IMG/VR virus record: IMGVR_UViG_3300022682_000016
Span: 26,313-90,312 of that record
Origin: a virus
DNA length: 64,000 nucleotides
Reading direction: 5' to 3' (one strand)
Shown here piece by piece: positions 2,249 through 63,845 of the stretch; position 1 is the first letter of the stretch, and every line of letters starts with the position of its first letter. The notes beneath the pieces were generated by a model. The model saw only the letters and a program-made list of their open reading frames with translations, searched no databases and had not been told where the DNA came from. The position numbers and the translations under genes are program-made.

Positions 2249-2261
2249 GGAGAATTTAACC

Positions 2262-6103: not shown

Positions 6104-6133
6104 TTGACAAGAATGTTTTTATTTTTTTATTTT
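6104..6133 (+). promoter_or_regulatory. sigma70-type promoter upstream of infA
   Basis: TTGACA (6104-6109), 18 nt spacer, TATTTT (6128-6133). Confidence 0.55.
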
Positions 6134-6140
6134 TGTTTAC

Positions 6141-6353
6141 ATGGCTAAAGAAGATCTCATTAAACTAGAAGGTAAGGTTATTGAAACCAAACCAAACATG
6201 TTTGTTATCGAATTAGATAACGGGCATAAAGTCTTAGGAACGCTGTCTGGAAAGATGCGCATGAACTTTATAAAAATAGTTCCTGGCGATACGGTTTGTG
6301 TAGAAGTGTCTCCATATGATCTTACCCGTGGTCGCATAACTTACCGAAAATAA
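6141..6353 (+). CDS. infA: Translation initiation factor IF-1
   Basis: MAKED.I.LEG.V.E..PN.F..ELDNGH.V...[26 protein letters not shown] is canonical IF-1. Confidence 0.97.
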
Positions 6354-6378
6354 TTCTTCAACAAAGGATGAACTGACA

Positions 6379-7518
6379 ATGGCTGAAGAATCCAAAAAAG
6401 CACTGGTGGCTAGACTAGTTGCTATAGGAGACCCGCATCTGCGCAGAACTGACCCATTAGGGGTTGTGGGTCCGGATGGTCGTAATACCCGTCTTAAAGA
6501 CAAATTGTCCGCATTAAAAGGTATCATAGATTATTCCATAGCTAATAACGCTACTCACATAATCTTTTTAGGTGATATTTTCGATTCTATTAACCCCCCG
6601 GACTGGTTAAAGAGATTGTTTTGGGAAACAGTTCTACCAGCCTACAAAAAGGGAATAAAGATACGAATAATTATCGGTAACCATGACCGAACAGAAAGTG
6701 ATAATTACAACTTTGCTTCTGACAATGTTATCTTACCTGAGAATATCCTTATCATACCTCATGAATCAATGGTTGAAAATATTCCTTTATCTGATAGAGA
6801 CCAGCCTTTTACAATAAAATATATTCCATATAAGAATAAAGGCGAAATAGAAGAAGATCTTAAATCACCTACAGATGCTACATTCGGACACTTTGAAATA
6901 GCCGGTGCGCAATTGGCACCAGACAATACAAAGATTCGTCACGGTATCGATGCTAAGGCTGTTCAGAGTAGACTTACTTGGTTAGGTCACATTCATAAAT
7001 TTCAAGAGTTTAGACCGGGATTCGCATTTATAGGTTCAACAGTTAAATGTGATTTTGGAGAAGTAAATAATCAAAAAGTTTTTGGGAAGTTGGATGTATT
7101 TTCTAATGGACAGATGAAACTCCAATATAATGAAATACCTCAAAGACCTATGTATCAATACGAAATCCATGAAGATGATCCAGATAATCTTTATATATCT
7201 GAACGAATACCTAAAGAGCTTACAGAAGAAGGTATTCTAATAAAATTTATATTTGTTGGGTCTCCTCAATGGATAAAATCTATAAACAAGGCAAAGTTTA
7301 CTAAGCGGTTTAAAAACGCTGTACGAGTAGTCACCAGTGACCGTAGATTAGATGTTGATCGGGTTGATACTGGTTTGGAGCACTCCTCAACAAAGATGGA
7401 AGACCGAGTACATATGTATGTTAAAGAGAAGAAAAAAGGAAAAGAATACCTTACCTCTGGTCTTGAAATTGTTAAAATTGCCCAAGAATTAGCTGAGGAG
7501 TCCGAAAATGAGGCTTAA
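6379..7518 (+). CDS. sbcD: SbcD/Mre11-like metallophosphoesterase nuclease
   Basis: GDPH, LGDIFD, GNHD, GHF, GHIH motifs; adjacent to SbcC. Confidence 0.9.
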   Translation: MAEESKKALVARLVAIGDPHLRRTDPLGVVGPDGRNTRLKDKLSALKGIIDYSIANNATHIIFLGDIFDSINPPDWLKRLFWETVLPAYKKGIKIRIIIGNHDRTESDNYNFASDNVILPENILIIPHESMVENIPLSDRDQPFTIKYIPYKNKGEIEEDLKSPTDATFGHFEIAGAQLAPDNTKIRHGIDAKAVQSRLTWLGHIHKFQEFRPGFAFIGSTVKCDFGEVNNQKVFGKLDVFSNGQMKLQYNEIPQRPMYQYEIHEDDPDNLYISERIPKELTEEGILIKFIFVGSPQWIKSINKAKFTKRFKNAVRVVTSDRRLDVDRVDTGLEHSSTKMEDRVHMYVKEKKKGKEYLTSGLEIVKIAQELAEESENEA

Positions 7519-43858: not shown

Positions 43859-45706
43859 TTAACCTGCAATGTCAAAACCCCATTCAAACTTAATAACGTT
43901 TGTTGGGTAGATTGGTTTATAATTGAAACGCACATACACCCAAGTAGGATTGGTAGTATCTTGCTGAACACTCGGATCTGTATAGCTCCGAATAATCTGA
44001 TCACGGACAAGTGCATTCAAACTGTCCTTAACAGTCTTATTAACACCTGTTAATAATGTGTCAGTAAGTTTCTTACCAATAAACTTGGAGTGGTTATCAC
44101 GAAGAACTTTAGCCATATAAGCTTCTGCCATGACAATGGACATTTCAGAATCTTCAACACTTGCCTGAGAAAGTGTTAGTCCGTGACGAACAAACAAATT
44201 ATTGAATCGGTCTTCAAGAACTAATCCACCTGCGGCAGCAATGGTGTCTTTGCGAGTATCTGTCCACAAAGCAACACTACCTTCTTCTCCGGAAGAAATA
44301 CCATAAACCTGTTTGTTTGTAGCAGGAACGGCAGGGTCTGACAAATTAGCAACCATGCCCATAGTGGCGATTGCATGCCAAGGACCATCGACTGCCTGAT
44401 TCAAGGTATAAGGCGTGGTATCTGTAATACCGGCAATACTGTTATATTTATCAACAGTGTTTTGCCAAGAATCCACATGAGGTTTACCGCCATCTGTAAC
44501 AACATATACACAGCGATTAGAACCGTTAAGAGCTAACAGTTTATCAGTAAGTGTAGATACGTTTGTATCAGCCATTACATCAGAGGTAGTGCTGACAAAG
44601 CAGAACCGTTCTTTAGCATTTTCTACTGAACTCATATCTTCACAATGAGCAACTAAAGTTTCGTTCACAGTGTCACTGGAAGAAGAGGTTGAGATAAGGA
44701 CAAGTTCTTGAATAGATTCGCAAGCAGCGATAGCGTCTTGGAAACCAGTAATTTCACCTGTAGAAACTTGAGGAGCAACCGCATACATTGACCCAGCAGC
44801 GTTTCCAACTCCAGCAGGCCCCATAACGAGACGAGCAGCATTTGAAATTTCTGAACCAATACCGTGATACTGTTGTACAGTTTCAGTATCGAAGAATCTT
44901 TGAGGAGAATTGTAAGTATAAGAAGAATAAGTGTAGGTAACATAAACATAATCACCGTTAGCGGGAGTATGTTTAGTGGTATTACTCGAAGGAAGTGTTA
45001 CAGCACCTGCTGATATTGCAGCTGTAAGAGTAGCACTCACAGTTGTTCCAGTAAGAGTTGCCGGAGTTGGGGTCTGCAATGCCCACTGAGCAGCAGTACC
45101 ACTACTGGGTTTTGCATAAATAAGGTAATTGTTAGCGTTACGAACCTTACCCCATTTAACAATAATGGATGCGGAACCACTTGCAACTGCCAATTGTGTA
45201 GTAGCAGCTATTGTCGTATTATTATTAGCATCTCTAGCAACAATAGCAATGTCATAAGTATCAGCAGCAATAGACCCGCCAGTACTTTCAGTAACACTAT
45301 CAAATTCAGGAGGAAAGATAGTAGGTGCACCAGTAAAATTAAGAATGCCAGTTGTTTTATCAACTGTAAAGTCTGTGCCTTCTAAATATTCACGCTTATT
45401 TGGGTTGTTGTGATCAGTAGACACTGATAATATTTCAACAACAGGAAGGCGAGGAATAGCAGATGTCTTGTAGGTAGCACTGTTATAGGTTATCTTGTCA
45501 TAGTTTAGAGTGTCACCACCCTGAACCATTTGACCATTGATGTAGATATTTTCTTCATCACCCGAATTGTTAGCTGTACGAGCAACTGACATTGTCCGAC
45601 CCAATGTCTTAGCAATAACTGCCGGAATAAAAAAGTTTGTGTTTCCTAACGGAGTTCCAGGAAGACCTGTGCGTTCCGTAAGTACTGAGGGTTTTTGATA
45701 GGGCAT
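43859..45706 (-). CDS. Contractile tail sheath protein
   Basis: MPYQKPSV, H...MS.....ER, P.TNK...G, VRHGLT, FIGKK, V.F.Y.P.YP.N.I. Confidence 0.9.
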   Translation of the reverse strand: MPYQKPSVLTERTGLPGTPLGNTNFFIPAVIAKTLGRTMSVARTANNSGDEENIYINGQMVQGGDTLNYDKITYNSATYKTSAIPRLPVVEILSVSTDHNNPNKREYLEGTDFTVDKTTGILNFTGAPTIFPPEFDSVTESTGGSIAADTYDIAIVARDANNNTTIAATTQLAVASGSASIIVKWGKVRNANNYLIYAKPSSGTAAQWALQTPTPATLTGTTVSATLTAAISAGAVTLPSSNTTKHTPANGDYVYVTYTYSSYTYNSPQRFFDTETVQQYHGIGSEISNAARLVMGPAGVGNAAGSMYAVAPQVSTGEITGFQDAIAACESIQELVLISTSSSSDTVNETLVAHCEDMSSVENAKERFCFVSTTSDVMADTNVSTLTDKLLALNGSNRCVYVVTDGGKPHVDSWQNTVDKYNSIAGITDTTPYTLNQAVDGPWHAIATMGMVANLSDPAVPATNKQVYGISSGEEGSVALWTDTRKDTIAAAGGLVLEDRFNNLFVRHGLTLSQASVEDSEMSIVMAEAYMAKVLRDNHSKFIGKKLTDTLLTGVNKTVKDSLNALVRDQIIRSYTDPSVQQDTTNPTWVYVRFNYKPIYPTNVIKFEWGFDIAG

Positions 45707-47444: not shown

Positions 47445-48419
47445 TTAAAATCTTGCATATATTAGAGCCTGTACATTATTTAATCTTTCTTCATCTGTTA
47501 CCGGAGTTATTTCAAGCTCATAGGCTCCTCTGTCTGGAGCTGCGCCTTGTGGACGGCTGGTGCCTATTATATCTTCATCTGTTGCTGTACCCGAAGCTGC
47601 ATTAGCTAGTATTGCTTCTGATAATTCCGTCGGAGTTGCTGCTCTTGCTGACATAACTGACAGTGTATCTGATAATGCTTGAATAACTTGGTCTGTAAGA
47701 TTTGGATCTGTATCAACGACAGAATTTGTTGCGGGATTTATAAATGACAGTGTTACGTCTCCTGCACCGTAATTATAAAATGTGCAACTGTCTAAATAAT
47801 ATTCTAATGAAGCATCAATAGCAATATCAGTATCTCTAAAAACACAAAATAACGTATTATTAATTCGTATAAGCTGTTGGGGTGATTCTCCAAGAATGAT
47901 GGAAGCTTCGTTCTTAACAATAAATATAGAACAATTATTAAAACCGCCTTCAGTCTGTGACGATGGTCCACCAATAAATATGTATCTGCTGGTCAAGTAA
48001 ATCAAACAATTATTATACACTGGCCAAATAGCACCAGATGTTCCATTATTTATCTCACATAAAGTGTAATCATTTTCAAGTACAAGGTTGTCAAAGGAAA
48101 TTACTGCAGTTGTGTTCGGTATGGCCGAGTTTACTGATCGTTCATAAAATCTTCCAACTAATGTAGCGGGGGTGCTGCGTTCACTTGGGTCTGTCTGTAT
48201 GGTAATATTAAAATCATTAAACACTAAATCATCACCAGTGAGATTATAGTACTGATTGATTACGCCAAAAGATTCACCGCCTTGTACATTAAGCGTAACG
48301 TGATCCGTTAGCCCACCCATTTGGCTAACAAGAACGCTTATGGCAACAAATGCATCATCTAAAGTAGTATAATCTCCTGGTATTGCTGCCCCAGCCTTTC
48401 TGAGTGTTATAGTTGTCAT
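47445..48419 (-). CDS. Beta-helix (pectin-lyase-like) virion protein
   Basis: GDYTTL..A start, NNC repeats, C-terminal DIIGTSRPQGAAPDRGAYE. Confidence 0.65.
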   Translation of the reverse strand: MTTITLRKAGAAIPGDYTTLDDAFVAISVLVSQMGGLTDHVTLNVQGGESFGVINQYYNLTGDDLVFNDFNITIQTDPSERSTPATLVGRFYERSVNSAIPNTTAVISFDNLVLENDYTLCEINNGTSGAIWPVYNNCLIYLTSRYIFIGGPSSQTEGGFNNCSIFIVKNEASIILGESPQQLIRINNTLFCVFRDTDIAIDASLEYYLDSCTFYNYGAGDVTLSFINPATNSVVDTDPNLTDQVIQALSDTLSVMSARAATPTELSEAILANAASGTATDEDIIGTSRPQGAAPDRGAYELEITPVTDEERLNNVQALIYARF

Positions 48420-48429
48420 AGCAATCTTT

Positions 48430-50034
48430 CTATGTTAAAACCGATTCTACAGAGGTTAAATTTGCACCTGAGTAACTATACGTTTTTGTTTCTGTTATAC
48501 TTAATTGGACATACACTGTCTCCTCAGTAGTAACTTGCTTACTACCATTATACGTAAATGTCTTCGTTGACACCAATGTTCCTTTTCCGCTGTCTGTGTA
48601 TTTCGTTGCTGTGGCTATCGTACCATCACCGTTATATGTATATTCTATGTATTCAGAAATGGCTATGCCTTTTTTCTGTTGGGCTAAATAATCTAGGGCT
48701 TTTTGTAGGGTGTCAGGAGTTATCAACCAATGCGCAAGAGTAGTCGGCGTAAATTTTGAATTACCTAGATACTGATTATATACAAAAGACCCAGATCCTT
48801 GCATAAAATTTGCAGGTAGTATGCCTATAAAATTGTCATAAGATGAATCTATTGTATCGCCGGTGCCTGTATAATAAGGGTAAAATGTGACCTGAGTTCC
48901 TGTAGCATTTTCTCTAGCAACAAATGTATTAACAGTTGTCGGAACAAACGCATCATTGGCTTGGGAATCAACATATAAAAACCTAACCTCACCGCTTGGA
49001 GTTGCCCCATCATTTGGTCCCATCGACACATTATTACCCTTAACCACAGTTTGTCCAATACCGTGGTCATTGGTGTTTGTATAAATAATATTAAATATGG
49101 AATTAAATGTGTTCCCAAAATAGCCAATGAACGTATTATTTATAATTGTATAATAAGGGATGTCATCATTAGATATATTACATAAACAAGCAACACCAAA
49201 AACATCCGTAGATAAATTTATAGAACTTCCAGCTATGTTAATGAGACAATTAGTAGCGTCCCAATAACTGTGGGTAGCAGAATCCATATTAATTAAATAC
49301 CTATCAATACCGCTATCACCGCTAAAAATAGGGAACCAATAAAAATAACAGTTATTTGTTATAAGCCTAAAAGCCCCACCAGTCCCTTTTATTAATTGTA
49401 GGTGATGTGTAGAAACACCAAAATTAACATCTATAAATCGTAAATGACAGTTTTGTAAACTAAGCGTTGTCCCACCACCTCCCTGAAATATAGCAAAGTC
49501 TGCTGGAGTAAATACACCTCCAGGGCCATCTGGTATAGACACAAAAAGCACATCTCTAAATTCGAGAGATATGTAAGACAATGTGAAAACTGGACTGGTA
49601 GTATCTTGGGGAATAGATATTCTGACAGATGCCACCACGCTATCACCGCTAGTATATTTACCTGCTTGAACGTCTTGTGGGGAATAGGCTTGTATAACAA
49701 TAGAAGTGAGGGCAGAAGCACTTGACGTTAGTGTGATTTGTCTATCAATTGTATAATCACCCGCATCCATTAATATTAGTACTGTATGGTAAGTCAAGTC
49801 TTTAGATAGCTGATTGGCCGCTTCTAAAGCATCTGGTAAGTTATCATAATCAGCCCACGTTAGATCAGACCCAACCCTTATTACATTATTTGCTTTTTCC
49901 GTACTTTCTTCAATAATAAGACCAGTTCCTGTAAATCTTGGAACTTTACCAGCAGTAGCGTTCCCACTACCGGGAACTGAGGAAAAACCTATTCGTTTAG
50001 GAAGCTCAGTATTTACAAAATCTTCAAAAGCCAT
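48430..50034 (-). CDS. Tailspike/fibre-like beta-helix protein
   Basis: DY..L.DAL.AA...ILMDAGDY, NC/NN beta-helix repeats, C-terminal YTYNGDG/FTYNG repeats. Confidence 0.65.
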   Translation of the reverse strand: MAFEDFVNTELPKRIGFSSVPGSGNATAGKVPRFTGTGLIIEESTEKANNVIRVGSDLTWADYDNLPDALEAANQLSKDLTYHTVLILMDAGDYTIDRQITLTSSASALTSIVIQAYSPQDVQAGKYTSGDSVVASVRISIPQDTTSPVFTLSYISLEFRDVLFVSIPDGPGGVFTPADFAIFQGGGGTTLSLQNCHLRFIDVNFGVSTHHLQLIKGTGGAFRLITNNCYFYWFPIFSGDSGIDRYLINMDSATHSYWDATNCLINIAGSSINLSTDVFGVACLCNISNDDIPYYTIINNTFIGYFGNTFNSIFNIIYTNTNDHGIGQTVVKGNNVSMGPNDGATPSGEVRFLYVDSQANDAFVPTTVNTFVARENATGTQVTFYPYYTGTGDTIDSSYDNFIGILPANFMQGSGSFVYNQYLGNSKFTPTTLAHWLITPDTLQKALDYLAQQKKGIAISEYIEYTYNGDGTIATATKYTDSGKGTLVSTKTFTYNGSKQVTTEETVYVQLSITETKTYSYSGANLTSVESVLT

Positions 50035-52151
50035 TATACAGTCTCCTCAAGTATAACCGCTGCTTCTCCGGAAGTGTTACTGACAGCATTGGCTTGGTCT
50101 TTATTGAACCATAAGTTCCCTGTTGGATTAGCTACTCCGGTAGGTTCTGTTATAGTAAACTTATCAACCTCATTGGTTGTGTCTGTACTATAAGTAAATA
50201 TGGTTCCACCATTGGGACCACCTCCACCTTTAGATAGGTTTTCGCAAACAAGTTTGGAAGTATCATAAACCTGCGTACCTATAGAAGCTTCTCTATTTGG
50301 CCAAGCAGCTACAGTAAGGGTTCTTTGCGTAAATCCACCAAGGACATAATCCGCACCACTATTAATAACTGTTACAACTTTACCTGCCAAGTTGGTAGAG
50401 GACAGATTAGTAAATGTAAAAGTACCCTTAGTATCAGAGTCTGCCACAAGCATGGATCTTGTCCAATTACTTGGTCCCCCTGTAAACCCAGCTCCTTGCC
50501 AAGTACCTTCACCAGCTCCTAAATCATCTAAGGTAGGAGCTTCTATTAATCTTTGAGAACTTGCAATTGTTATAGAGTAAGATTCTCCAGCATTAGAGCT
50601 TCGTAGTCGTGTATATGGAGTACTAATGTTAATCACTTGATCAGAATGTGCTATGTAAACCACTGCCTGTCTTGTAGTAGAAGCTGCGTTGGTAGTTTTA
50701 GTAGCTACCACTCTAAAGTTATTAATAGATATATTATAGTTACCTGCAATACGGGTAGCTGACTTGGCAGGCTCATAAGTACTGGAATTAGCAATAGACA
50801 ATTGTGAATTTGGTGAATCGTAAGCAACTGTACCGGTACCTGTTGGGAATGAGATTGTATGATTAACAGTTACAGATTCAGAATCTTTAATAGCTTCTTG
50901 AGAAGCTGGATAATCAATATTTCCCTGAGAAATTGAGGATATTACTGGGTAGTCATTGTTAAGTTCAACAGTACCTGACGCGTCTCCTGTATGGAAATCT
51001 GTAGCCACTACATAATCACCCCAGAAATTGTTAGATTCTGCTCGACAACGGATTCTAACAGTCTGTTCAGCAATTGTTCCTGAACCCCTATCAGAAATAG
51101 TTATAGCAACTGTATGACTAGTTCCTGGAGTAAGGGATGTTGTTTGAGCCTGCGCAGCTTGATAATTAACAACCTCTACCCTATCACAAGCAACATCTGT
51201 AGTGAAGGTTATATTGAATGTATCACCCTCTTTAAGTTCTGTTTGAGAACCTGGGTAACCATCTGTAAACTGTAGATCAGTGACTTGCGCACCAGCAGCC
51301 ACAGTTACTGGAACAGTATAAGGTTCTGGATTATCCTCATGCTCTGCGGAAAGTTCAGAAGCCCCATTAAGATCAATAGCTATACTTCCTACCCAGTGTC
51401 CTTGAGAATTAAGACTTAAATCAGAAGGATCAATATCATTACCGTTTATGGAAAGTCTAGGTACATAGTGAGAATACCCAGTAAAGGCTAATACTTCCAC
51501 TGTTATAAGATCAGTATCTGTAGAAAATCCAGTTAAGGTATACCCATCCTCATAAGTCTTATCTCCAACATTACCGACACCAGTTGCGGACACATCCGTT
51601 ATAAACACGGCCCCATTAGTATCTGCCGCATCTCTCGACCTGGAAGAAGAACTACATGAAGAACTAAAACTGGAACTGTGGCTAGAACTACAACTTGAAG
51701 AACTACTAAAGTTCTCATCTGAGGAACTGGATGAGGAACTGAAGCTTGATGAACTAAAACTTGAAGAACTGAAGCTGGATGAACAGCTACTAAAACTGGA
51801 AGAACTGAAGCTGGCACTGTGAGAACTTGAGCTATATATTAGTGGAGTTCCGGTATAATCCCTTCCAACACCGATACCTGTTCTTGTAGTATATGCTTGT
51901 GGAGCCACACCACCCAAAATATTGTAAGGTCTTACAGTTGGCCATGACCCACCTTTACCAATATTAACAGCAGCAGCTGTTCCCCGAGCAATTAGATAAT
52001 CAGGAATCTCATTAGGAACACCCAAAGCTGAAGAACAGCTGGGAGAGCTACTAAATGAACTAGATGATGAGCTAGACATTGAAGAACTACAGCTACTAAA
52101 AGAACTGGATGAGAAACTACTGGAAGAAGATGAAGATGACGAACTAGCCAT
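50034..52151 (-). CDS. Virion structural protein with two N-terminal poly-Ser/Cys tracts
   Basis: Ser tracts at aa ~3-41 and ~106-171, followed by Ig-like beta-rich domains. Confidence 0.7.
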   Translation of the reverse strand: MASSSSSSSSSSFSSSSFSSCSSSMSSSSSSSFSSSPSCSSALGVPNEIPDYLIARGTAAAVNIGKGGSWPTVRPYNILGGVAPQAYTTRTGIGVGRDYTGTPLIYSSSSHSASFSSSSFSSCSSSFSSSSFSSSSFSSSSSSSDENFSSSSSCSSSHSSSFSSSCSSSSRSRDAADTNGAVFITDVSATGVGNVGDKTYEDGYTLTGFSTDTDLITVEVLAFTGYSHYVPRLSINGNDIDPSDLSLNSQGHWVGSIAIDLNGASELSAEHEDNPEPYTVPVTVAAGAQVTDLQFTDGYPGSQTELKEGDTFNITFTTDVACDRVEVVNYQAAQAQTTSLTPGTSHTVAITISDRGSGTIAEQTVRIRCRAESNNFWGDYVVATDFHTGDASGTVELNNDYPVISSISQGNIDYPASQEAIKDSESVTVNHTISFPTGTGTVAYDSPNSQLSIANSSTYEPAKSATRIAGNYNISINNFRVVATKTTNAASTTRQAVVYIAHSDQVINISTPYTRLRSSNAGESYSITIASSQRLIEAPTLDDLGAGEGTWQGAGFTGGPSNWTRSMLVADSDTKGTFTFTNLSSTNLAGKVVTVINSGADYVLGGFTQRTLTVAAWPNREASIGTQVYDTSKLVCENLSKGGGGPNGGTIFTYSTDTTNEVDKFTITEPTGVANPTGNLWFNKDQANAVSNTSGEAAVILEETV

Positions 52152-53005
52152 TACAACATACCTCCAAGAATATTATTATGTCTATGACCCTGTCTTCTAG
52201 TAGGCTCCACAATAGGTGGTGTTGAGAATCTATAAGCCATATCATATAATTGCATCTTTTCCAAATTAAAGCTTTGGGCAGTTATATACCCCTGTATCTT
52301 TCTCTGTTTTACATTACGAACTCTGAATCGTTCATTATGTTGACGTACAAGAATATCACCCTCTGTAAGGCGTGGGTAAGTAGATATAATACCTGTAGTA
52401 GGTTCATCAATAGTGATACCATTAGAGTTACCAACCAATTTTTTAGGATTTGATCTTACTCTACAGTAAACATTCTCTATAAGCTCAAATCCTCCTTTAT
52501 ACCCATGCCCCAAACATGAGGGGCAGTTTGCATCTACTTTGCGAGTACGAACATCTATACAGTCACAATATTCACCTGCCCATTTACGAACAAGAAAGTG
52601 AACAACTTCAGCAGCTGAGAATCTTGTAGGATCTAACTGCATATTTGTTCGAGAACGTATAGTGGGTGCTACAAATTGTTGTATACCGTGTAAAGGTGTT
52701 TCAAAGGTTTCAGAAAGAGATTTTGATAATGGGTACTCATCCCCATTTTGAAGAACTGGTATAACTTTATAAAACCACTGAACTTTCTGATTTGCAACTG
52801 CTTCACCAGTAAATCCCCTATCCTGAAAATAGTTTACCTGTATTATTTTACTATTTATTTTATACCAATCATTAGGATCGTCACTTCTTTCTTCTGCACG
52901 GTAAATATTGTAACCTTGAACATTTCTAACATGCATCCAAGCAAGATCTACTAAATAGTTACCAGCTTGAGTAGTTGGACGGCTAACAATAAGTTTAAAA
53001 TCCAT
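52151..53005 (-). CDS. Neck/head-closure protein with FnIII-like and Zn-binding domain
   Basis: LAW....GYNIYR...FYKV; CDC...CPSCLGHGY.GG; P.L.EGDILV. Confidence 0.65.
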   Translation of the reverse strand: MDFKLIVSRPTTQAGNYLVDLAWMHVRNVQGYNIYRAEERSDDPNDWYKINSKIIQVNYFQDRGFTGEAVANQKVQWFYKVIPVLQNGDEYPLSKSLSETFETPLHGIQQFVAPTIRSRTNMQLDPTRFSAAEVVHFLVRKWAGEYCDCIDVRTRKVDANCPSCLGHGYKGGFELIENVYCRVRSNPKKLVGNSNGITIDEPTTGIISTYPRLTEGDILVRQHNERFRVRNVKQRKIQGYITAQSFNLEKMQLYDMAYRFSTPPIVEPTRRQGHRHNNILGGML

Positions 53006-53700
53006 TAGTTAGATTTCCTTTTCAGGAGTTTCGACACTGCTAGAGAAAAACACTCTTTAACAGAAAGTTCTTTTAGTATCTCATGTTTAAAATCATGTTT
53101 AGCTGTAGCTCTAACCTCATTCTCTAATCTTACTCTATATTTCTCTCTTAAGAAAACATCCCAATCAAATAATGTACCAGGATCTACTTTCATAACTGAT
53201 TTTTTCTTAATACCAAGATCTACGGCTATTTGACCAGAGATCCAATCATGGCCTACCCATTGCTCAATATGCCCTAAATTTTGATTATTAACGTAATCTT
53301 CAATAAATACTGCTAAATTAGCAAGAGATTGATATTGTGGAGTTGTGTATTTATCTCCAGCTTTACAAACCAATTCAACACCTATTGAATCATGATTAAT
53401 ATTTTCCATATACTCTGGAATAGCTATTACTGATTTTCCAGCATGCCAAGCAGTGTCCTCTAAACGAACAAGCTGCCATATATTTCCTTCACGATCAATT
53501 ATATAATGACATGAAAATTGGTATTTTGGACCTTCCTCATCAAATATCTTTAAGACGCCTTCCATATTGTAAGGATCTTGCTCATACCCCTCCATATTTT
53601 TAGCGCTTACAAAGTGTATAACACCAAATTTTATTGGTCTTTCATGTCCTTTAGTATAACTTGGGACGAAATGTTCCTGAACAGCTATTGCGGTATTCAT
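53005..53700 (-). CDS. N-acetylmuramoyl-L-alanine amidase (Amidase_2/AmpD-like endolysin)
   Basis: VIH, SCHYII, AWHAG, N..SIGVEL, VGH..I, K.DPG. Confidence 0.92.
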   Translation of the reverse strand: MNTAIAVQEHFVPSYTKGHERPIKFGVIHFVSAKNMEGYEQDPYNMEGVLKIFDEEGPKYQFSCHYIIDREGNIWQLVRLEDTAWHAGKSVIAIPEYMENINHDSIGVELVCKAGDKYTTPQYQSLANLAVFIEDYVNNQNLGHIEQWVGHDWISGQIAVDLGIKKKSVMKVDPGTLFDWDVFLREKYRVRLENEVRATAKHDFKHEILKELSVKECFSLAVSKLLKRKSN

Positions 53701-56216
53701 AACACATCTTTCAAAGAGTTTATAACCTTAGTTACATAATCATCATAACCTTTACCGTCTAACTCATCACTAACTGGGACTGATCCATAATCATCGGCCT
53801 CGTCTGATTTTTCTGATAAGGTGTCTCCTTCTGGAGATTCGTTTATTTCACCCGGACCTATGTTCATCATATCTTGAAGACGTTTAACCATTAGCGGTGA
53901 TGTATTGTAAAAACCTTTATAAGAGTCTGGGTCGTAGTAATCGTAATTGTCCCCAAGGTTACCAAGGAATTTATCTCGAACATCGTTAAATATTCCGGAT
54001 GGAGTGTTGTACGCATACCCATCTTGATCAAATGCTTTCTTTATAGTATTTAAAGATGCTCGTATATCAGCATCCTCTGGATCAAACTTACCAGTGTTTC
54101 CGATAGCAGATTTTATTTGATTAGGAGAAAATACTGCATAACCCCAAGTAGATTGTCCTGGTGCTTCTTTAACAGTGTAACCGTCATAACCATTTTCCTG
54201 CAACCAAGATACAAACTGTTTTGATTCTCTAGCATCATAATTACCGATAGCTATTGCATCTGAAAAATTATAAGCATCATCCTCTGAAAAATCATAATTA
54301 TTAATCAAGTAATTCCTGAACGAAACCAACTCATTAGAGTCTTCATCTACCTTATCAAATAATTTTTCTACTTTTAAATAAACTGGATATATATTAGCTC
54401 CTTTAGCATATGCATAACCACCAGCAAACTCAGGATTTGGGGTAAAGAATAGCTGTTGCTGAGTTGGTTCTGAGTCTACTCCTGATTTAAACGAGGGCTT
54501 AAATTCAGAAAATGATTCATGAGTCCCATGGTAAACAACTAAAGGATTACCGTCCTCATCAACTACTTTACTATCCCCAAACCATGCTTTGAACTCTGGA
54601 GAGTCTGTAATTGAGGCTGTGAGTGTGTTTTTAATAGGTATGACTGTACCGTCACCCAATGTAATGTCTAATAACTTAATAGGACTTCCAGAAAGCACTC
54701 TTAGTTCATATTCATCTCTACCTTGAAATTCTGCTGCTGCTGATATAGTTCCATAAATATCAACGTATTCTTTGCCAACTATACCATGCAAAATAATAGT
54801 TTCTCCAGGGTCACTGAGAGAATGGTAAGGTCTAGCACCTTCTTTATTATAAGACCAGTATAAACCTAATCCATCACTCTCTTTATTTTTTGAAACTCCA
54901 CGTTTTATATCGTCTATAAAACTCTCAACATCTCGTACTTTAATAGCCCTCCAAATTTCAAATTCATTAGCACTGTAAAAATCCTCTGGAAGCCTAATTC
55001 CGTTAAAAAACTCTTCTAAAGAGTTTCTCAATATAATATTAGCCTCATCATCTAAATTATCTTTGTCGATGTTTGTAAAATCAGTATTATAAAACACATC
55101 ATCCAAAATTTGTCCAAAAGTATCAGATTCTGTAGCAGCTAAAAGTCCCTCCACAACAACATTATTAGCATCCTTTCCAAGCATATCAGAAATAATAAGC
55201 TTTACATTATCAGTATCATATAAATAATCAGAAATATAGTTCTGAATACTGGATATATCCGAATTGTCAGAATAAACAACAGAAGATCTATTTTTAGAAG
55301 TTTTCAAGACAGATGCTACTGTTTCTAAGTAGTCTTCAAGATCGCCCAAGTCATCAAACTCTTTATAAGGTTTTTCAAGCCTGTCAAGAAGTTCCTTTTC
55401 GTGTTCAGTACCTTCCCCACCTTTATAAAATACGACTTCATCGGACAAAAGCATATTAGCTACTTCATCATAGATATTGACCTCAGCTTCCCAATCTTCA
55501 TCAACAGGATCTATTAAAATCATAGTATCCTTAAATTCTTCTACTATGTCATCACGCCAGTCAGTGGTTTCACCACCAAGAAAAACAATTGGATCACCGT
55601 AAACAGTCCCGTCTTCGGAAAGGTTATTAGACTCCTTATCAGAATCAGCCACATCTTCTATAACCTCAACAGATTCCTTTTCAGGTTCATAACCTTCTAA
55701 GTAAAGATCTTCTGTAGTTCCATCAGGGTTACTGAGAATAAGTTTTGTTATTTCCCACTCAAAAGGTTCTACCTCTTCATCTTTAAGGCGTACTCCGGGC
55801 TGCATATATGCAATTGTAATGTGAGGCTTATACTCTGGATGAGAATCCTTATTTGGAAGTTCCTCTTTAAGAGTGTTATGCAGTTTGGTTAGCTGTTCAG
55901 ATTCAACAGGTACAATAGCAACTGTATTATCATTATCAAAATAATCAACTTTACCAGAACTTTTTATTTTAATAGGTTCTGTAAAATATTCTTTAATAGT
56001 ATCTTTACACGCCTTATCAGGATTAATTCCATATAAAACTGTTATATGAGTGTCAGTTTCTACCCCATTCATAGTTTCTTCTTGAGGATAAAGGTCCCCT
56101 TCATCTATAGTAGGCGCAATATCTTTTAAAAGTATGCGTCTAAGTTCATCCGGAACAGGAGCATAGATACAGCCATGCTCGTAATTAGCTGTTACTGTAT
56201 TCCTAAACATATTCAT
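53697..56216 (-). CDS. Polyvalent protein: 2H phosphoesterase + NDT-like + R-S-ExE ART-like + ART-PolyVal-like domains
   Basis: HITVLYG/PHITIAY; VFLGG...WR...IDPV..DW; IWR..YWS..EYE; FKAWFGDSKVVD..GNPLVVYHGT..FFT...YA..YPVYL..GYDG...VFSPNQIKS. Confidence 0.8.
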   Translation of the reverse strand: MNMFRNTVTANYEHGCIYAPVPDELRRILLKDIAPTIDEGDLYPQEETMNGVETDTHITVLYGINPDKACKDTIKEYFTEPIKIKSSGKVDYFDNDNTVAIVPVESEQLTKLHNTLKEELPNKDSHPEYKPHITIAYMQPGVRLKDEEVEPFEWEITKLILSNPDGTTEDLYLEGYEPEKESVEVIEDVADSDKESNNLSEDGTVYGDPIVFLGGETTDWRDDIVEEFKDTMILIDPVDEDWEAEVNIYDEVANMLLSDEVVFYKGGEGTEHEKELLDRLEKPYKEFDDLGDLEDYLETVASVLKTSKNRSSVVYSDNSDISSIQNYISDYLYDTDNVKLIISDMLGKDANNVVVEGLLAATESDTFGQILDDVFYNTDFTNIDKDNLDDEANIILRNSLEEFFNGIRLPEDFYSANEFEIWRAIKVRDVESFIDDIKRGVSKNKESDGLGLYWSYNKEGARPYHSLSDPGETIILHGIVGKEYVDIYGTISAAAEFQGRDEYELRVLSGSPIKLLDITLGDGTVIPIKNTLTASITDSPEFKAWFGDSKVVDEDGNPLVVYHGTHESFSEFKPSFKSGVDSEPTQQQLFFTPNPEFAGGYAYAKGANIYPVYLKVEKLFDKVDEDSNELVSFRNYLINNYDFSEDDAYNFSDAIAIGNYDARESKQFVSWLQENGYDGYTVKEAPGQSTWGYAVFSPNQIKSAIGNTGKFDPEDADIRASLNTIKKAFDQDGYAYNTPSGIFNDVRDKFLGNLGDNYDYYDPDSYKGFYNTSPLMVKRLQDMMNIGPGEINESPEGDTLSEKSDEADDYGSVPVSDELDGKGYDDYVTKVINSLKDVL

Positions 56217-56320
56217 TTTTTGAACCTCTCTATAGACATAAAACCATCCTTAGATCTAGTCTCTTTATTAAAAAAATCAGTTGACTTAATGATTTTACAT
56301 CTTGTACATATTTTTTTCAT
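56213..56320 (-). pseudogene. 35-aa remnant of the N-terminal zinc finger of a homing endonuclease
   Basis: MKKICTRCKIIKSTDFFNKETRSKDGFMSIERFKK*; matches K.C..C...K....F......KDG but lacks the second CxxC and the nuclease domain; ATGA overlap with the polyvalent gene. Confidence 0.6.
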
Positions 56321-56358: not shown

Positions 56359-57210
56359 TTAACCATAGAAAACTCTGCTCATGTGAGGTAGAAGCGATAA
56401 TGTCCTCTGATAGTACATGGGAAATCGTCCAGACGCCATTCCGATCGGCTTGACAGCGTGCCACATAAAGTCTCTTTTCCACGTCTTAATGGCTAATATC
56501 CACTGCTGTCTCAATGTCTGCGCATTTTGGAAAAAGGGTGTTCTATCAATATTCAGCGACAATTCATCATTATAATTAAATCTATTCCACTGAGCAAACA
56601 CACCGGCAGCTTCTAACGCACATACAAAACCGCCAGTAACTATTAAATCATGAGCCTCTGAAAATCCTTGCTCCCAAGTAATATTCATTGGTTGAGGTGG
56701 TTCTTGTCCAACTTTTAAACGAGCATTATCAAGACAACTGTACAATTCACCGTCTGTCCAACGTACACGCATATTGTCATCAATAAGGTACCTACTAGCT
56801 CTCTTATCCCAAAGTTTGGCTCTTAGAACACCTATAAAGTATTGTTCAATATTAGTTTCAGCAGAGGTAAAGGATAATTGATGATTAACTGGGCCAATCC
56901 CAGTTGCAGAACCAGAAAATGTAAATACATATGTCCCGGCATCCATACCGGTTGTTAGAAAACAATAATGCCACACACCAATAGAGTCATCTACCCTACT
57001 AAGAGGAACTAAAACTTTTTCAGGTGTGTATGGGTTACCGTCTTTTGTAACAGTTACGGAATAGGTAGTAGGGTCAAAATATTGATTAGTAGTAGGATCT
57101 ATCCAATCAATATTAACCTCAACGTGGTCTTTATTTACAGAGATACCTTGAGTATTTATACCCTGTAATTGATTTCCAGGACTTGTTGAAAGACTGTTAT
57201 CTGAGGACAT
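56359..57210 (-). CDS. Head-tail adaptor/neck protein
   Basis: Ig-like N-terminus, then LR.KL.D...RWTD.EL...L...PP, F.YND..L.IDR. Confidence 0.65.
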   Translation of the reverse strand: MSSDNSLSTSPGNQLQGINTQGISVNKDHVEVNIDWIDPTTNQYFDPTTYSVTVTKDGNPYTPEKVLVPLSRVDDSIGVWHYCFLTTGMDAGTYVFTFSGSATGIGPVNHQLSFTSAETNIEQYFIGVLRAKLWDKRASRYLIDDNMRVRWTDGELYSCLDNARLKVGQEPPQPMNITWEQGFSEAHDLIVTGGFVCALEAAGVFAQWNRFNYNDELSLNIDRTPFFQNAQTLRQQWILAIKTWKRDFMWHAVKPIGMASGRFPMYYQRTLSLLPHMSRVFYG

Positions 57211-57218: not shown

Positions 57219-57370
57219 CCTGGTTTATCCAACTTATAAAAAGTTAGAATGGCCCCCTTCAAAACCTTTAAGTGGATTTCGTGCTTCCCAGAAACCAGTT
57301 TCGTATTTCAAGAAATCCTGAAATACCAGAGCCGGTCTCTCCACACGCTTTAACGACAAACCCTGCCGCA
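57219..57370 (-). ncRNA. Putative omega/reRNA scaffold of TnpB
   Basis: Overlaps the tnpB 3' end; nested stems GAGACCGG/CTGGTTTC and GTATTTCA/TGAAATAC. The location is as established for TnpB elements. Confidence 0.55.
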
Positions 57371-58417
57371 TAATATTTTGTGCTGCATTTAAATCTCTGT
57401 CAATTTCAATTCCACATTCGCATTTGAAAACCCTGTCACTGAGATTCATATCATTAACAGAACCACAATCAAAACACAACTTTGTACTTGGGAAAAACCT
57501 ATTTATAACATGAACTCTTTTACATTTGTATTCAAGCTGTCTGCGTGCCTCTCGGAACGAAACGTCAGCAATAGCTTTTGCTAATTTGTGATTTCGCAAC
57601 ATACCAGAAGTATTTAAATCTTCAAGACAAACATCTATATAATTATTGGCAATATATCTTGAAAATTTATGAATTGCATCACTCCTGTAATTACTAATCC
57701 TAATATGTAGTCGTTGAAGCGTGGTTTTTACTTTACGGAAACTATTAGAACCCCTTACCTTTCTTGACAAAGATTTGTTTAGCAACCTTAAACGATGTGA
57801 AAATTTCTCGATTATTCTAGGATTTTCAAAAACAATACCATCAGACAATGTAGCGAATTTTGATACGCCAAAGTCAATACCAATAGGTTTAACAGCTTGG
57901 TTTTTAATATCACCTTTGTTATCAACTTCAACGCTAATCGAAATAAACCACCAATTAGCCTTTCGAGATACTACAGCAGAAACAATCTTGCCATCATATC
58001 GCAACGATTCTGTCATTTTAACCCAGCCTAATTTTGGGACTTTCACTTTATTATTATCAATGGATAACACTGTACCAGAAATATAAAACGAATCATGTAC
58101 CCCTTTCTTTTTAAATCTAGGATATCCTTTTTTAGTTTTAAAAAACCTTTTAAACGCACTATCAAGATTTCTAAACGCTTGGTCAGGTGCCCATTTTGTA
58201 ACATCATAAACAAACGGAAATTCAGCACGTTTTATGGAATTAAATTGTTTTTTACTCCAAAAGCAGTGGGTTTTCCTCCGCTTTCATATAAAAACTTCCA
58301 TTTTGCAAGCCCCCAATTATAAGCAAGCCTTGCACAGCCACATGCTTTTGCAAAATATGTAGACTGCACATTATTTGGAGACAGACGTATTTTATGACTT
58401 CTTTGTATTGTATTCAT
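57234..58417 (-). CDS. tnpB: TnpB RNA-guided endonuclease, split by a single -1 frameshift (about 394 aa if joined)
   Basis: HKIRLSPNN...ACGCARLAYNWGL, then after the shift KQFNSIK..FPF..V.K.APDQAF...GYPRFKKK; RuvC GIDFG, LEDL, DRDLNAA; Zn finger CFDC/CEC. Confidence 0.9.
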
Positions 58418-58468: not shown

Positions 58469-58672
58469 TTACAGTTTCAGCCCCCTCTTAATTGTGGAGA
58501 CTAGCTTAGCGATACTTGCTCTACCAAGGTTTTCAGTATTCCAACGATAATGATCTTCATACTCATCCATTACCGTTGTTCTTGGTGGAACCCGATCTTC
58601 TCGTCGTTCATTTTCTCGGAGCTGGGTATTATTAAACTCCAAATTATCATAAAGAACCGAGTCTTTACGCAT
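58469..58672 (-). CDS. Hypothetical protein
   Basis: 67 aa; TAATG coupling to the upstream gene. Confidence 0.6.
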   Translation of the reverse strand: MRKDSVLYDNLEFNNTQLRENERREDRVPPRTTVMDEYEDHYRWNTENLGRASIAKLVSTIKRGLKL

Positions 58673-60402
58673 TAAACAGTGGTCTCCATAACTTGAGTTA
58701 TTTCAGTACCGGATGGAACTACTACAGAGTTTCCAGCATCGTCTTTTGCTACAATTGCGGGTTCTGAAGAACCAGCCATCTGACTAACATTGTCCACTGT
58801 AAGTGTCATAGGTTGTCCAGTGGTCTGGTCATTTACCTGAATCTGTGTTCCTGGAGTCATTTCGGCAAACAACTTTTTAGATTGTTTTGTCCGTCTTTTT
58901 CCAGTAAGGGCAGATATTAAAGAACTGATAACATTACGAGGACTCTCACCTTTAGAGATTCGATTAGCATAAACACCTAAATCTTCTTCAGAAAACTCTG
59001 GAGTGTCATCATCTTCATCCTTCGTAGCATAGCTACCACAAATTGCAAGTTCTACCTTATCATTCATATTAACCATGATAGATTCTAATTTGCAATTACC
59101 AGTTTTTTCTTTATCATAGTTTATACAGTTAGTAACTGAACACTCTAATACTGTCCGATCCTTATCCTTATCTGAAGATGAATCATCTGCAAGGTCATCC
59201 AAATCTTCTGACAACTCTGCTATCTTTTTAGAAGCTTCTGAAATCCCATTAAAATTAAGAACTGCGTTTCCCTGAAAAGCATCAGTCACGATTTTTTCCA
59301 TAGCAGGAACAGCTTTATTAATCACCTTCTGTATACCTTTACTATCAGCACCTTCAATTGTAAAGGAAATGGTGCTACTACCAGCAGTCTTCTTAGACGC
59401 TTCTGTGGAGTTGTTTTTTAATAACTGATCTTTAAGAGATTCCAATGATGAAAAGAACTCTTCATTAACATTTAACCATTTAGTCTGGCCATTTTCTGAT
59501 CTAATCTGAACAGTTGCTGGATAGTTACCTATTGGAAGAACAGATGATAGTTCATTTTCATAATACCCCGCTGTCTTCTTAGAAGCCTGTTTAGATACAT
59601 CTTCTTTAGATTTATTTGTACGATATAACAGTAAATTTTGGTAATTTTCAAATTCGCCGTTATTATCTTTAGAAAAGTTTTCTGCTTCTTTCATTTGATC
59701 CCAGTTAAATCTTTTAATAGTTCCGTCAGGTAACGTAACTTTAAATGGGTTTCCTTTTACAGTCTCTACAAAATCTTCATATAACGGAGTGCTTATGTTA
59801 GGGTTATTTCTGTGTTCCTCCACAAAAGCATCATACATATCCTGTACCATATCATCAAAAGATAGTCCTCTAGTATCCGTCACTTCAGCAATCTTTTTAG
59901 ATGAACGTTTTTCAACAGGATCTTTTTCACCAGCATCCAAAACTTTCTTAATTTTAGGATCTACCTTTTCCTTCATAGGTTCAGCTACCGATTCTTTCTC
60001 AGTTTTTCGGTCAGAGGTATTTGGATGTTTGTTTTCGTTCTTATTCCGTTCACGAATATCTTTTTGTTCTTCTGTAGTAGGTTCAACTTTATCAACACCA
60101 TAAATCTTATCTTGACCCTCAGAAGCAATTGCAGTCTCTTTTCCAGAAAGCCCGAATAAAGTACCCAATTGATCAGATACCTGCTTAGGAGCCTCTCCAT
60201 TAACTACTGAAATACAGGTCTTAATAGCTGCGATATCATTTACAGAGGCACCTTTTAGAAATGTATAAGATTCATTATCACTTAAAGCAATGGACAATAC
60301 TTTAAGCTGATCAGTAGTCGGATTTTTAGTTCCAGCCTTAACAGCTTTTTTAATAAGATTAACAACTGAGGTTTTTTTAAGGACTTCCATAATATTCTCC
60401 AA
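58672..60402 (-). CDS. Head-region modular protein with five SKKxA repeats and a DUF1540-like Cys domain
   Basis: SSKKIA, ASKKTA, ASKKTA, ASKKIA, QSKKLFA; C.V.NC..Y....C....I.V......A.C..Y. Confidence 0.7.
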   Translation of the reverse strand: MENIMEVLKKTSVVNLIKKAVKAGTKNPTTDQLKVLSIALSDNESYTFLKGASVNDIAAIKTCISVVNGEAPKQVSDQLGTLFGLSGKETAIASEGQDKIYGVDKVEPTTEEQKDIRERNKNENKHPNTSDRKTEKESVAEPMKEKVDPKIKKVLDAGEKDPVEKRSSKKIAEVTDTRGLSFDDMVQDMYDAFVEEHRNNPNISTPLYEDFVETVKGNPFKVTLPDGTIKRFNWDQMKEAENFSKDNNGEFENYQNLLLYRTNKSKEDVSKQASKKTAGYYENELSSVLPIGNYPATVQIRSENGQTKWLNVNEEFFSSLESLKDQLLKNNSTEASKKTAGSSTISFTIEGADSKGIQKVINKAVPAMEKIVTDAFQGNAVLNFNGISEASKKIAELSEDLDDLADDSSSDKDKDRTVLECSVTNCINYDKEKTGNCKLESIMVNMNDKVELAICGSYATKDEDDDTPEFSEEDLGVYANRISKGESPRNVISSLISALTGKRRTKQSKKLFAEMTPGTQIQVNDQTTGQPMTLTVDNVSQMAGSSEPAIVAKDDAGNSVVVPSGTEITQVMETTV

Positions 60403-62084: not shown

Positions 62085-62978
62085 TTAACCAGCTGTGTTA
62101 AAAGTTCCCTTTGCAACAGCTTTGCCATTGTGTACAGTCATGGCTAGAAGCTCATAACCAACAAAACCAAGTTGCAAATTGTCCGGATCATCAGCGGGGA
62201 TAACATCCACGTCACGACGAATAGGAGTCCAAGCTGTGAATTCCGGTTCAGCGATGATGTAGAAAGTACCGCTAGTGACTTGGTCATTGATATAAATATC
62301 AGCATCCCAAATGCTTCCAAGATAACCGGATTTACGGATTTCTTCACGGGCAACATTATCGATGTCCTGATACTGCCAACGACGAATACCTTGGATGCCG
62401 TAAGGAGACATCAAGATACTCTTAACACGCAGACGATGACGTTCAACCTGAGTAAATGCACGGGCAAGAGCGTCTTTGGTCAGGTAGGTAGAAATGACCG
62501 TAGTTGTGTTAACCTGCTGAGAAGCAGTTTCTAACAGAGAGAAACCATAAAGGTCTTCACGAAGGGCCATACCCTGTTCCAAACGTTCTTTAACACGTTT
62601 CATTACCTGGTATAAACGTTTATAAAGTTCAGCGTAAGGGACTTTAGGACGAACAACGATTTCAAATTCTTCGAGTTCGGTACGTTCAACCTCAACTTCG
62701 ATAATACGAGTAGTACCATTGCGGCCAATTTTGACAGCGGTAAACTCATCAATATCGTTGTCGTAGATGATAGGCATTCCATCAGGCCAGCCTTCAACAA
62801 CGCTGAAACGACGATAAATACCAATGTAGTCCAGATACTTCCGAACAGGAGAAGCCAAGTTAGCAGCGATTTTATGAAGACCTGTGGGGGACTTCATCGC
62901 AGCCTGAAGGTCGGCTTCTTTCCGCATCATCGAAGCTTTAGCAGCTTCGCGTTTTGTAGATGCTTGTTTAGTAATCAT
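62085..62978 (-). CDS. Major capsid protein (short HK97-fold type)
   Basis: LA.PVR..LDY.GI.RR...VE..PDG....YD.D, FEIV..P.V...EL..R, ED..GF.LL, GYLG.IW.A.I, GFVGYE; strong SD GGAGGT. Confidence 0.85.
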   Translation of the reverse strand: MITKQASTKREAAKASMMRKEADLQAAMKSPTGLHKIAANLASPVRKYLDYIGIYRRFSVVEGWPDGMPIIYDNDIDEFTAVKIGRNGTTRIIEVEVERTELEEFEIVVRPKVPYAELYKRLYQVMKRVKERLEQGMALREDLYGFSLLETASQQVNTTTVISTYLTKDALARAFTQVERHRLRVKSILMSPYGIQGIRRWQYQDIDNVAREEIRKSGYLGSIWDADIYINDQVTSGTFYIIAEPEFTAWTPIRRDVDVIPADDPDNLQLGFVGYELLAMTVHNGKAVAKGTFNTAG

Positions 62979-63052: not shown

Positions 63053-63845
63053 TCAAACTGTTTGTTCAAATTCTTTTATATATTTCGCAATTCTTAAATG
63101 AGTCTTTATATCCCCATCATTCTTAATCCTATTAGCTCTATAACTAATTACAGAACAGTTCTCTTTTGTGTACCCTAAAGTTGGATCTAAACGATCCAAA
63201 GAAGGTGAATTATTAGTCATGATACCCACACCTCTTTTAATGGGTATAGAAAGTATTGGGCATATCGCAGGTACTTTAATATCATTTTTACGTAAAGTAC
63301 AGGGAACATTTAATGTTCTCGATCTACGTTTAGCTCCCCAATACAATTTATTTATTAACTGTTTATCATTAGATTGATACTTCAACGACAATTTTTTGTC
63401 ATGCGTAGACATGTATCGGACAACAGCTAGGTGTTCATCAGCAGTTGCATCATTTTTTATCATATTAGCTTTTTTTGATATGACAGCAATGTTATTGGGA
63501 ACATATCCTAATTTTGGGTTAATTCTATCTAGTGAAGGACCAAACATTCCATTACCAACTACTAAAGGTACTCCTAATATTGGACAAATATCTGGTATTT
63601 TTACATCATTTTTTGTTATAGTAAACAAAAGATTACCTTTACGAGCACGTTTACGAGCATCTTTTAACATCAACGTAACAGGATTAGATCTTCTACGTTG
63701 TTTAGCATATTCTCTAGCTAACTTTCTTTTAGTATCATTTTTTTTATCTGATCGCATACATTCTTTGCAAGTATTACGTCTACCGTCTACACACTCATAC
63801 GATATGTAGAATTCAGACAATACCTTTGTTTCTCTGCATCTAATA
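63053..63845 (-). CDS. Tandem-domain HNH-like (His-Me) endonuclease, N-terminus apparently interrupted by a TnpB element
   Basis: Two copies of A..RA...CPIL..P....PSLDR..P.LGY...N..VIS..AN.IKND. The frame extends upstream of the called TTG (63820) as IRCRETKVLSEFY...DG....CKEC. Confidence 0.8.

Follow-up and report, generated by a model that had tools for sequence, protein, structure and literature searches.

An unusually composed polyvalent effector gene in a conserved phage virion-gene slot with exchangeable cargo

The 64,000-nucleotide stretch analyzed here (the window; positions 26,313 to 90,312 of IMG/VR virus record IMGVR_UViG_3300022682_000016) carries a gene, P0001, whose product is an unusually composed new example of the known class of phage polyvalent effectors. 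From N to C terminus, the chain joins a 2H phosphoesterase domain (module 1), a nucleoside deoxyribosyltransferase (NDT)-like domain (module 2), a helical subdomain followed by a small ADP-ribosyltransferase (ART)-like core (module 3), an ART-PolyVal domain (module 4) and a conserved C-terminal module (module 5; Table 1). The gene occupies a conserved slot among virion genes that is filled with other combinations of these modules in related phages. Cutting of the chain into separate enzymes is unsupported.

P0001 is read on the minus strand from an ATG at position 56216 and specifies 839 amino acids (aa) plus a stop codon, a full-length chain of 95 kDa. A Shine-Dalgarno-like GAGAGG, read from the sequence at 56225..56230 (-), lies 8 nt upstream of the ATG, and the open reading frame (ORF) is real. 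The protein forms a singleton cluster on the source record, which is 90,312 bp long and 49% complete by CheckV. The spacer upstream of P0001 is filled by a 35-aa ORF (56213-56320, minus strand; MKKICTRCKIIK...) with a CxxC motif, the TGA of which overlaps the P0001 ATG (ATGA). As far as can be read from its residues, this ORF resembles the zinc-ribbon beginning of a homing-endonuclease gene, or what is left of one.

Domain composition of P0001

The original prediction had divided P0001 into four enzyme-like segments, and all four assignments are supported by the combined evidence of Pfam, PHROGs, structure models, Foldseek and conserved residues. Its coordinates were correct, but it missed the minus strand, the helical subdomain and the fifth, C-terminal module. 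The residues and strings that it named were found in place: VFLGG at 211, R423 in IWRA, S455 in YWSY, E502-Y-E504, EFKAWFG at 541, NTVTA at 6-10, NTLTA at 530-534, DIRAS at 717 and NTIKKA at 723-728. Structure models were made for module 2 (aa 196-312) and for the helical subdomain with module 3 (aa 313-540).

Module 1, read originally as a 2H enzyme spanning aa ~12-173, matches Pfam 2_5_RNA_ligase2 (PF13563) over aa 53-148 with 40 bits (cut-off, 27). The same stretch scores 35.9 bits with Pfam Acb1 (PF23474), also above the curated cut-off of 27, and a PHROG search agreed with Pfam by returning phrog_755. Both catalytic-type 2H motifs, H57-I-T and H132-I-T, are present. The top PDB sequence matches are Acb1 chains, although at non-significant E values (7t26_A, 0.12; 9q2g_A, 0.46). 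Module 1 shares with Acb1, the anti-CBASS protein of phage T4 and relatives (PDB 7t26 and 9q2g), the 2H fold, the two H-x-T motifs and a Pfam score over the cut-off. Unlike Acb1, which is a free protein of ~150 aa, module 1 is the first module of a fusion encoded in a structural operon. The generic 2′,5′ RNA ligase model fits it just as well by score, and an NDT-like domain usually accompanies it.

No Pfam match was found on module 2 of P0001 at an E value of ≤1. Its relatives score 17.8 to 27.9 bits on Pfam Nuc_deoxyri_tr2 (PF15891), just short of the cut-off of 30 bits. The AlphaFold model of the module (predicted local distance difference test [pLDDT] score, 86.6) has the NDT-type Rossmannoid fold, and its Foldseek matches are mostly nucleoside 2′-deoxyribosyltransferases, DNPH1/Rcl, MilB and YtoQ. 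Compared with the NDT, DNPH1 (Rcl) and MilB N-glycosidases (PF15891), module 2 is shortened, with four strands within ~100 aa against five within ~150 aa; it also falls below the Pfam cut-off and is fused inside a phage effector. When module 2 was aligned with 15 relatives (16 sequences), 14 positions were invariant, E273 among them, and T270 was nearly invariant. E273, in the GGEGTEHE string, stands at the start of model helix 73-84, after strand 3; NDT and DNPH1 have their nucleophilic Glu at this place, and E273 is its putative counterpart. The Foldseek list and the near-cut-off relatives support the deoxyribosyltransferase-like domain first proposed at aa ~208-298.

A search with module 2 alone, restricted to short proteins, found six, five of which also carry 2H Pfam domains; PF15891 is listed in the precomputed Pfam tables for five of the six. 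Because of this cooccurrence, the NDT-like/2H pair is a real recurring unit. Literature searches (Acb1 plus deoxyribosyltransferase, and broader) returned no description of such a pair, and a 2022 survey lists DrHyd domains in viruses as ADP-ribosyl-cyclase (ARC-type) versions only (PMC9503650). A DrHyd/NDT-like domain tied to a 2H domain in phages is therefore a new detail.

The region comprising aa 313-540 has no Pfam or PHROG match; a word-based search with it returned only the query itself, and a module 3 profile run against PDB sequences gave chance matches only, with nothing relevant. The stretch is shared by six proteins of the representative search and is duplicated in two of them, and the helical subdomain invariably precedes module 3 in the closest relatives. 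In a model of aa 313-540 built from a seven-row alignment (pLDDT, 84.9), five helices form a bundle (aa 317-404) that precedes a beta core (aa 418-533). In an alignment of typed segments from seven sequences, R423, G451, W454 and E504 are invariant, while position 502 is E or Q and position 455 is S or A. In the numbering of the model, R423 belongs to strand 106-115 and S455 to strand 141-143, and E502-x-E504 is at strand 192-195, which in the predicted fold is the strand 1/strand 2/strand 5 arrangement of R-S-E ARTs. The ART-like pattern proposed at aa ~420-520 (R423-S455-E502xE504) is thus in place and on the expected strands of the model.

The closest structural matches of module 3 are the small bacterial ART toxins TreTu/TreX (Rhs toxins) and the catalytic cores of cholera and pertussis toxins (A1/S1), which have R, S and ExE in the same order on strands 1, 2 and 5. 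Identity to cholera toxin A1 reaches up to 20% over 100 aligned residues. Matches in BFVD are small uncharacterized phage proteins (e.g., Phi92_gp246-like; E value, 7e-6). We read module 3, with fair confidence in the modeled fold, as an unnamed minimal R-S-E-type ART-like domain; we are less confident that it would have ART activity. The 2017 survey of polyvalent proteins reported no R-S-E ARTs of the Alt/VIP2 clade in them (PMC5512222), and an R-S-E-like ART core inside polyvalent proteins is a new detail.

Module 4 had been assigned to ART-PolyVal (aa ~536-720), and Pfam agrees: aa 553-711 match PF18760 with 90.9 bits (cut-off, 31.2) over the full profile (1-140 of 140 positions). The family His and Asp are kept as H563 and D678; in an alignment of 150 sampled ART-PolyVal domains, these positions are conserved in 97% and 100%, respectively. 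Their presence fits the H-Y-D active site reported for the clade (Tox-ART-HYD2) (PMC5512222). The ART-PolyVal domain has a conserved end, which is the string DIRA.

The presence of a 2H domain beside ART-fold domains could also be read as an RNA-end repair kit, in which the 2H domain opens the 2′,3′-cyclic phosphate ends that host anticodon nucleases or RNase effectors leave behind and an ART-fold domain works on a 2′-phosphate in the manner of Tpt1/KptA. Cooperation of 2H enzymes and ART-fold KptA in RNA repair is documented (PMC9503650), and Tpt1 (8tfi; E value, 0.89) is one of the weak matches that Foldseek returned for module 3. However, P0001 has no ligase, kinase or CCA-adding domain, and polyvalent-type 2H domains were never seen with RNA ligases by Iyer et al. 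(PMC5512222). Further, the R-S-ExE residues of module 3 resemble those of protein-modifying ARTs, module 4 belongs to the H-Y-D clade and not to the KptA type, and RNA repair offers no role for an NDT-like partner. We regard this explanation as very improbable.

Module 5 has no Pfam or PHROG match, and Atlas gave nothing useful (template modeling scores of 0.33 or below). It is common to relatives P0003, P0002, P0056, P0025 and P0005 and to metagenome contigs L082 and L083 and is always C-terminal; the simplest of these proteins, P0056, is 304 aa long and consists of a 2H domain plus module 5. A dedicated search for relatives found none in IMG/VR and two short metagenome contigs only. No second copy of module 5 is present in the phage's own record, and the records of two related phages, L014 and L086, contain none. 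This unnamed conserved C-terminal module is a new detail.

Shuffled relatives and a conserved gene slot

A HMMER search against 1.84 billion representatives returned 15,039 proteins at an E value of ≤0.001, most of them giant proteins with multiple ART domains and lengths of up to 7,334 aa. None of the other proteins among the relatives found has the architecture of P0001. The closest relative, P0002, has the order NDT-like, SprT-like, 2H, module 3, module 5. P0025 has the order NDT-like, 2H, module 3, module 5, and P0003 ends in an NDT-like domain, two unknown segments, a 2H domain and module 5; the orders in P0002, P0003, P0005, P0025 and P0056 all differ from that of P0001. P0014, P0007, P0011 and P0013 are fusions of 2H or ART-PolyVal relatives with Mu-type portal and MuF head domains.

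P0001 lies between the major head protein gene and two sheath-like genes (Table 1), as expected from its original placement in a head/neck operon. Synteny was read from four related phage records, L014, L082, L083 and L086; both flanks of the P0001 locus are visible in L014 and L086, and L082 and L083, being short contigs, show the downstream side only. L014 is a syntenic 132-kb IMG/VR contig whose capsid protein is 85% identical and whose flanking genes are 64% and 68% identical to those of the window. Exactly between both flanks, L014 encodes a polyvalent protein of 1,069 aa, which has copies of ART-PolyVal, an NDT-like domain and a 2H domain but no module 5, and it has no amidase gene there. 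The downstream homologue in L086 was found by an alignment-based scan with the 284-aa flank, whereas a single-sequence scan found nothing. Because the four records hold differently shuffled modules at this position, the slot is conserved and its cargo is exchangeable.

Table 1. Coordinates in the window of P0001, its modules and candidate joints, and neighboring genes, with slot contents of related records (all window features on the minus strand; a slash marks the candidate cut)
Feature	Position	Residues	Remarks
P0001, polyvalent gene	53697..56216 (-)	1-839	
Module 1	55692..56186 (-)	11-175	2H phosphoesterase, Acb1-like; H57-I-T, H132-I-T; Pfam, phrog_755
Module 2	55299..55595 (-)	208-306	NDT/DNPH1-like (DrHyd) Rossmannoid domain; GGEGTEHE273
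Helical subdomain	55005..55268 (-)	317-404	Five helices
Module 3	54618..54965 (-)	418-533	Small ART-like beta core (predicted); R423/S455/E502-x-E504
Module 4	54054..54596 (-)	541-721	ART-PolyVal, H-Y-D type ART; PF18760
Module 5	53700..54032 (-)	729-839	Conserved acidic C-terminal module; GNLGDN.DY.D ... PGK.Y.D
RNTVTA10/N	56184..56204 (-)		Before 2H domain
KNTLTA534/S	54612..54632 (-)		Between module 3 and ART-PolyVal
NTIKKA728/F	54030..54050 (-)		ART-PolyVal/module 5 junction; only KK(x)A-type site of P0001
Major head protein	62085-62978 (-)		phrog_2522, E 1.4e-49
Two unnamed proteins	to 60410 (-)		Downstream of major head protein
576-aa "SKKxA" protein	58672-60402 (-)		
Broken TnpB	57234-58417 (-)		
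Unnamed 283-aa protein	56359-57210 (-)		Upstream flank of slot; 64% identical to L014 9073-9981
Amidase_2 cell-wall amidase	53005-53700 (-)		PF01510, 78.2 bits; start overlaps P0001 stop codon (53697-53700)
Unnamed 284-aa protein	52151-53005 (-)		Downstream flank of slot; identity 68% L014, 72% L082, 63% L083, 56% L086
Sheath-like gene	50034-52151 (-)		
Sheath-like gene	43859-45706 (-)		
Slot of L082			Module 3, module 5, Amidase_2 homologue, 284-aa homologue
Slot of L083			Module 5, Amidase_3, 284-aa homologue
Slot of L086, start	1122-1979 of L086 (flank protein)		285-aa flank protein (likeness by eye), GIY-YIG-like gene (by eye)
Slot of L086, continued			551-aa NDT-like plus zincin-motif protein, DUF5675, GIY-YIG-like gene (by eye), 359-aa homologue of 284-aa flank

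The nearest cultured relative of the capsid protein is gp27 of Bacillus phage G (37% identity), followed by the protein of Tunturiibacter phage Tunturi_5 (31%). These matches of the major head protein point to a distant G-like large myovirus, with a genome about twice the size of the 90,312-bp record, as the source. The gene order of phage G contains nothing comparable to this region.

The gene directly after the polyvalent gene varies. It encodes an Amidase_2 protein in the window, an Amidase_2 protein in L082 (674-1402), an Amidase_3 protein in L083 (290-1039) and a DUF5675 protein in L086 (4890-5519); none of these follows the polyvalent gene of L014. The Amidase_2/Amidase_3 swap, between two families that do the same job, resembles a non-orthologous displacement of one cell-wall hydrolase by another. 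In L086, the polyvalent cargo is flanked on both sides by genes (1996-3135 and 5521-6957; 379 and 478 aa, with long basic repeats) that resemble GIY-YIG-type homing endonucleases, the family being assigned by sequence reading. Such genes may help explain the exchange of slot content.

Several other differences from L014 were noted along the operon. The 576-aa protein shares only its N-terminal 170 aa (48% identity) and C-terminal 160 aa (30%) with its 348-aa L014 homologue (7903-8949), so its middle modules are also exchangeable. The TnpB-like gene (OrfB_IS605 and Cas12f TNB domains) is split into two ORFs, a 61-aa N-terminal piece (58232-58417, minus strand) and a 278-aa body (57234-58070, minus strand), which lie between the head genes and the 283-aa flank, and L014 has no such insert at the corresponding place. 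The two tail-sheath-like genes of the window (43859-45706 and 50034-52151) match phrog_2839 (E value, 2e-23) and phrog_15433 (8e-117); L014 has a homologue of the first only. The L014 stretch examined contains no counterpart of the block at 47445-52151, which comprises a 705-aa sheath-like gene and genes of 534 and 324 aa. Upstream of the major head gene, a 255-aa protein (63053-63820, minus strand) contains two copies of ICPILG.P...SLDR..P..GY...N..VIS..AN..KND and, judged from this repeat, looks like a tandem HNH-type endonuclease.

Proteolytic processing of the chain

The original prediction held that related motifs at the domain boundaries mark sites at which the protease acting on the SKKxA protein releases four enzymes. 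If P0001 were such a polyprotein, a head maturation protease would cut at the NT[VL]TA and IKKA joints and free the four enzymes inside the capsid. The strings are indeed present at the predicted places, but the likeness of NTVTA and NTLTA is at chance level and neither contains KK. RNTVTAN and KNTLTAS score 24 with BLOSUM62, whereas shuffled versions of P0001 average 9.6 such pairs with a mean best score of 28; the likeness is within chance. In favor of processing, the tripeptide [ILV][TK]A occurs just twice in P0001, both times at domain borders; against it, no cut-site-like motif is found between modules 1 and 2 or between modules 2 and 3. An Ala 4 to 5 residues before a conserved G-C is common in the 2H domains of relatives, including P0056 and P0090, in which the 2H domain is N-terminal. 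Its retention even in proteins that start with the 2H domain suggests that this Ala is a structural element and not a cut site. Endings of the form h-[TK]-A-[DNS], like KNTLTA/S, follow module 3 in P0002, P0137 and P0053.

The KK(x)A motif was considered separately. It is enriched in the neighboring 576-aa head-operon protein (five sites versus 0.84 expected; P = 0.003) and in a 441-aa putative prohead protease of L014 (phrog_18299; E value, 4e-8; SSKKKTAAK; P = 0.007). The L014 protease is identified weakly, with no Pfam match, and the protease of the phage studied here lies beyond the contig. P0001 has a single KK(x)A site versus 0.29 expected (P = 0.24). That site falls exactly at the ART-PolyVal/module 5 joint, where K-x-[AS] occurs in six of six relatives carrying module 5. 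When the joints of P0001 are compared with T4-type processed cargo (Alt and IPI-III), only A728 matches the motif of the 576-aa protein and the L014 putative protease; the other joints do not. With no KK at the NT[VL]TA strings and one KK(x)A site in the chain, release of four enzymes by the protease of the SKKxA protein is not borne out, and a processed polyprotein appears quite unlikely. Clipping at IKKA728/F would detach module 5 alone, and at most the sequence suggests that module 5 can be clipped off.

Proposed function and significance

P0001 had been filed originally as a polyvalent, probably anti-defense protein, and its four enzyme-type domains, ART-PolyVal, virion-gene setting and shuffled relatives agree with this. 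Like the polyvalent proteins described by Iyer et al. in 2017 (PMC5512222), it places several unrelated enzyme domains in one polypeptide of a viral record, carries the hallmark ART-PolyVal domain and a 2H domain, which is a listed component, and is encoded among virion genes with modules shuffled between relatives. Unlike them, it is small (839 aa), has no peptidase, helicase, methylase or MuF part and carries an NDT/DrHyd-like domain, an R-S-E-like ART core and the unnamed conserved C-terminal module.

From the ORF, domain families and folds, catalytic-type residues, synteny and shuffling computed here, we infer packaging, injection, substrates and an anti-defense role. We think it probable, though by no means assured, that P0001 is a late-made polyvalent effector, likely carried in the virion, whose 2H and NDT-like domains act on nucleotide signals or cyclic-phosphate species and whose two ART-type domains modify host targets with NAD+. 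Module 1 would most likely open 3′-5′ or cyclic phosphodiester bonds of cyclic-oligonucleotide immune signals, or 2′,3′-cyclic phosphates. Module 2 keeps a GTxxE motif with the putative nucleophile and would bind a nucleotide or cut an N-glycosidic bond, probably in the same pathway as the 2H domain, since it nearly always travels with a 2H domain in relatives. Modules 3 and 4, both of ART type, would use NAD+ to modify host macromolecules. The product would most likely be synthesized alongside the virion proteins, travel inside the particle and enter the cell together with the DNA, because its gene occupies a fixed slot between conserved structural-operon genes that is filled by other module shuffles in related phages. 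Polyvalent proteins, H-Y-D ARTs and fusions of 2H domains to MuF or portal proteins have been described as virion-delivered early effectors (PMC5512222; PMC9503650).

A familiar parallel outside the polyvalent class is phage T4 Alt, a head-packaged R-S-E ART that is injected with the DNA. Both would be late-made ARTs, believed to be capsid borne and first to act in the next cell, and the R/S/ExE arrangement of Alt is also seen in module 3. Unlike Alt, however, module 3 is far smaller (~115 aa), with no sequence relation detected between the two, and P0001 has neither an N-terminal capsid-targeting sequence nor an L/I-x-E protease site.

P0001 could instead be a non-packaged, cytoplasmic late enzyme, coexpressed with the structural proteins, that silences nucleotide signals and modifies proteins of the host cell in which it was made, at a late stage. 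Structural proteins are the trigger of many abortive-infection systems, and the same domain evidence fits such a role. No packaging domain can be recognized in P0001, L014 and L086 do without module 5, and the translationally coupled amidase gene could encode an endolysin, a typical late cytoplasmic product. On the other hand, 2H and ART-PolyVal relatives are fused to portal and MuF head proteins, the slot lies between conserved virion-operon genes in the relatives with both flanks visible, and published analyses take such a context to indicate packaging (PMC5512222, PMC9503650). On balance, a cytoplasmic enzyme seems unlikely, and we prefer the virion-carried effector.

A more far-reaching version of the virion-carried effector joins three proposals. 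The NDT-like/2H pair would be a fixed two-step unit that linearizes a nucleotide immune signal and then removes the base; module 3 would found an unnamed minimal R-S-E ART family living, in contrast to the 2017 survey, in polyvalent proteins; and the 111-residue module 5 would be a detachable head-loading tag cut by the capsid protease at K-K-A. All three together are unlikely to be right, but if they were, the cargo of this phage lineage would be readable from sequence.

Polyvalent proteins are believed to face host defenses before any other phage protein, yet almost none have been examined experimentally. P0001 is short enough to be expressed whole, and its Acb1-type enzyme, NDT-like partner and two ART types make it a convenient entry point. 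It opens the questions of what is destroyed by effectors borne in virions (signals of CBASS, Pycsar, type III CRISPR or Thoeris), what they modify and whether they are cut in the capsid. Further, the conserved slot marks where a G-like phage lineage keeps exchangeable counter-defense cargo.

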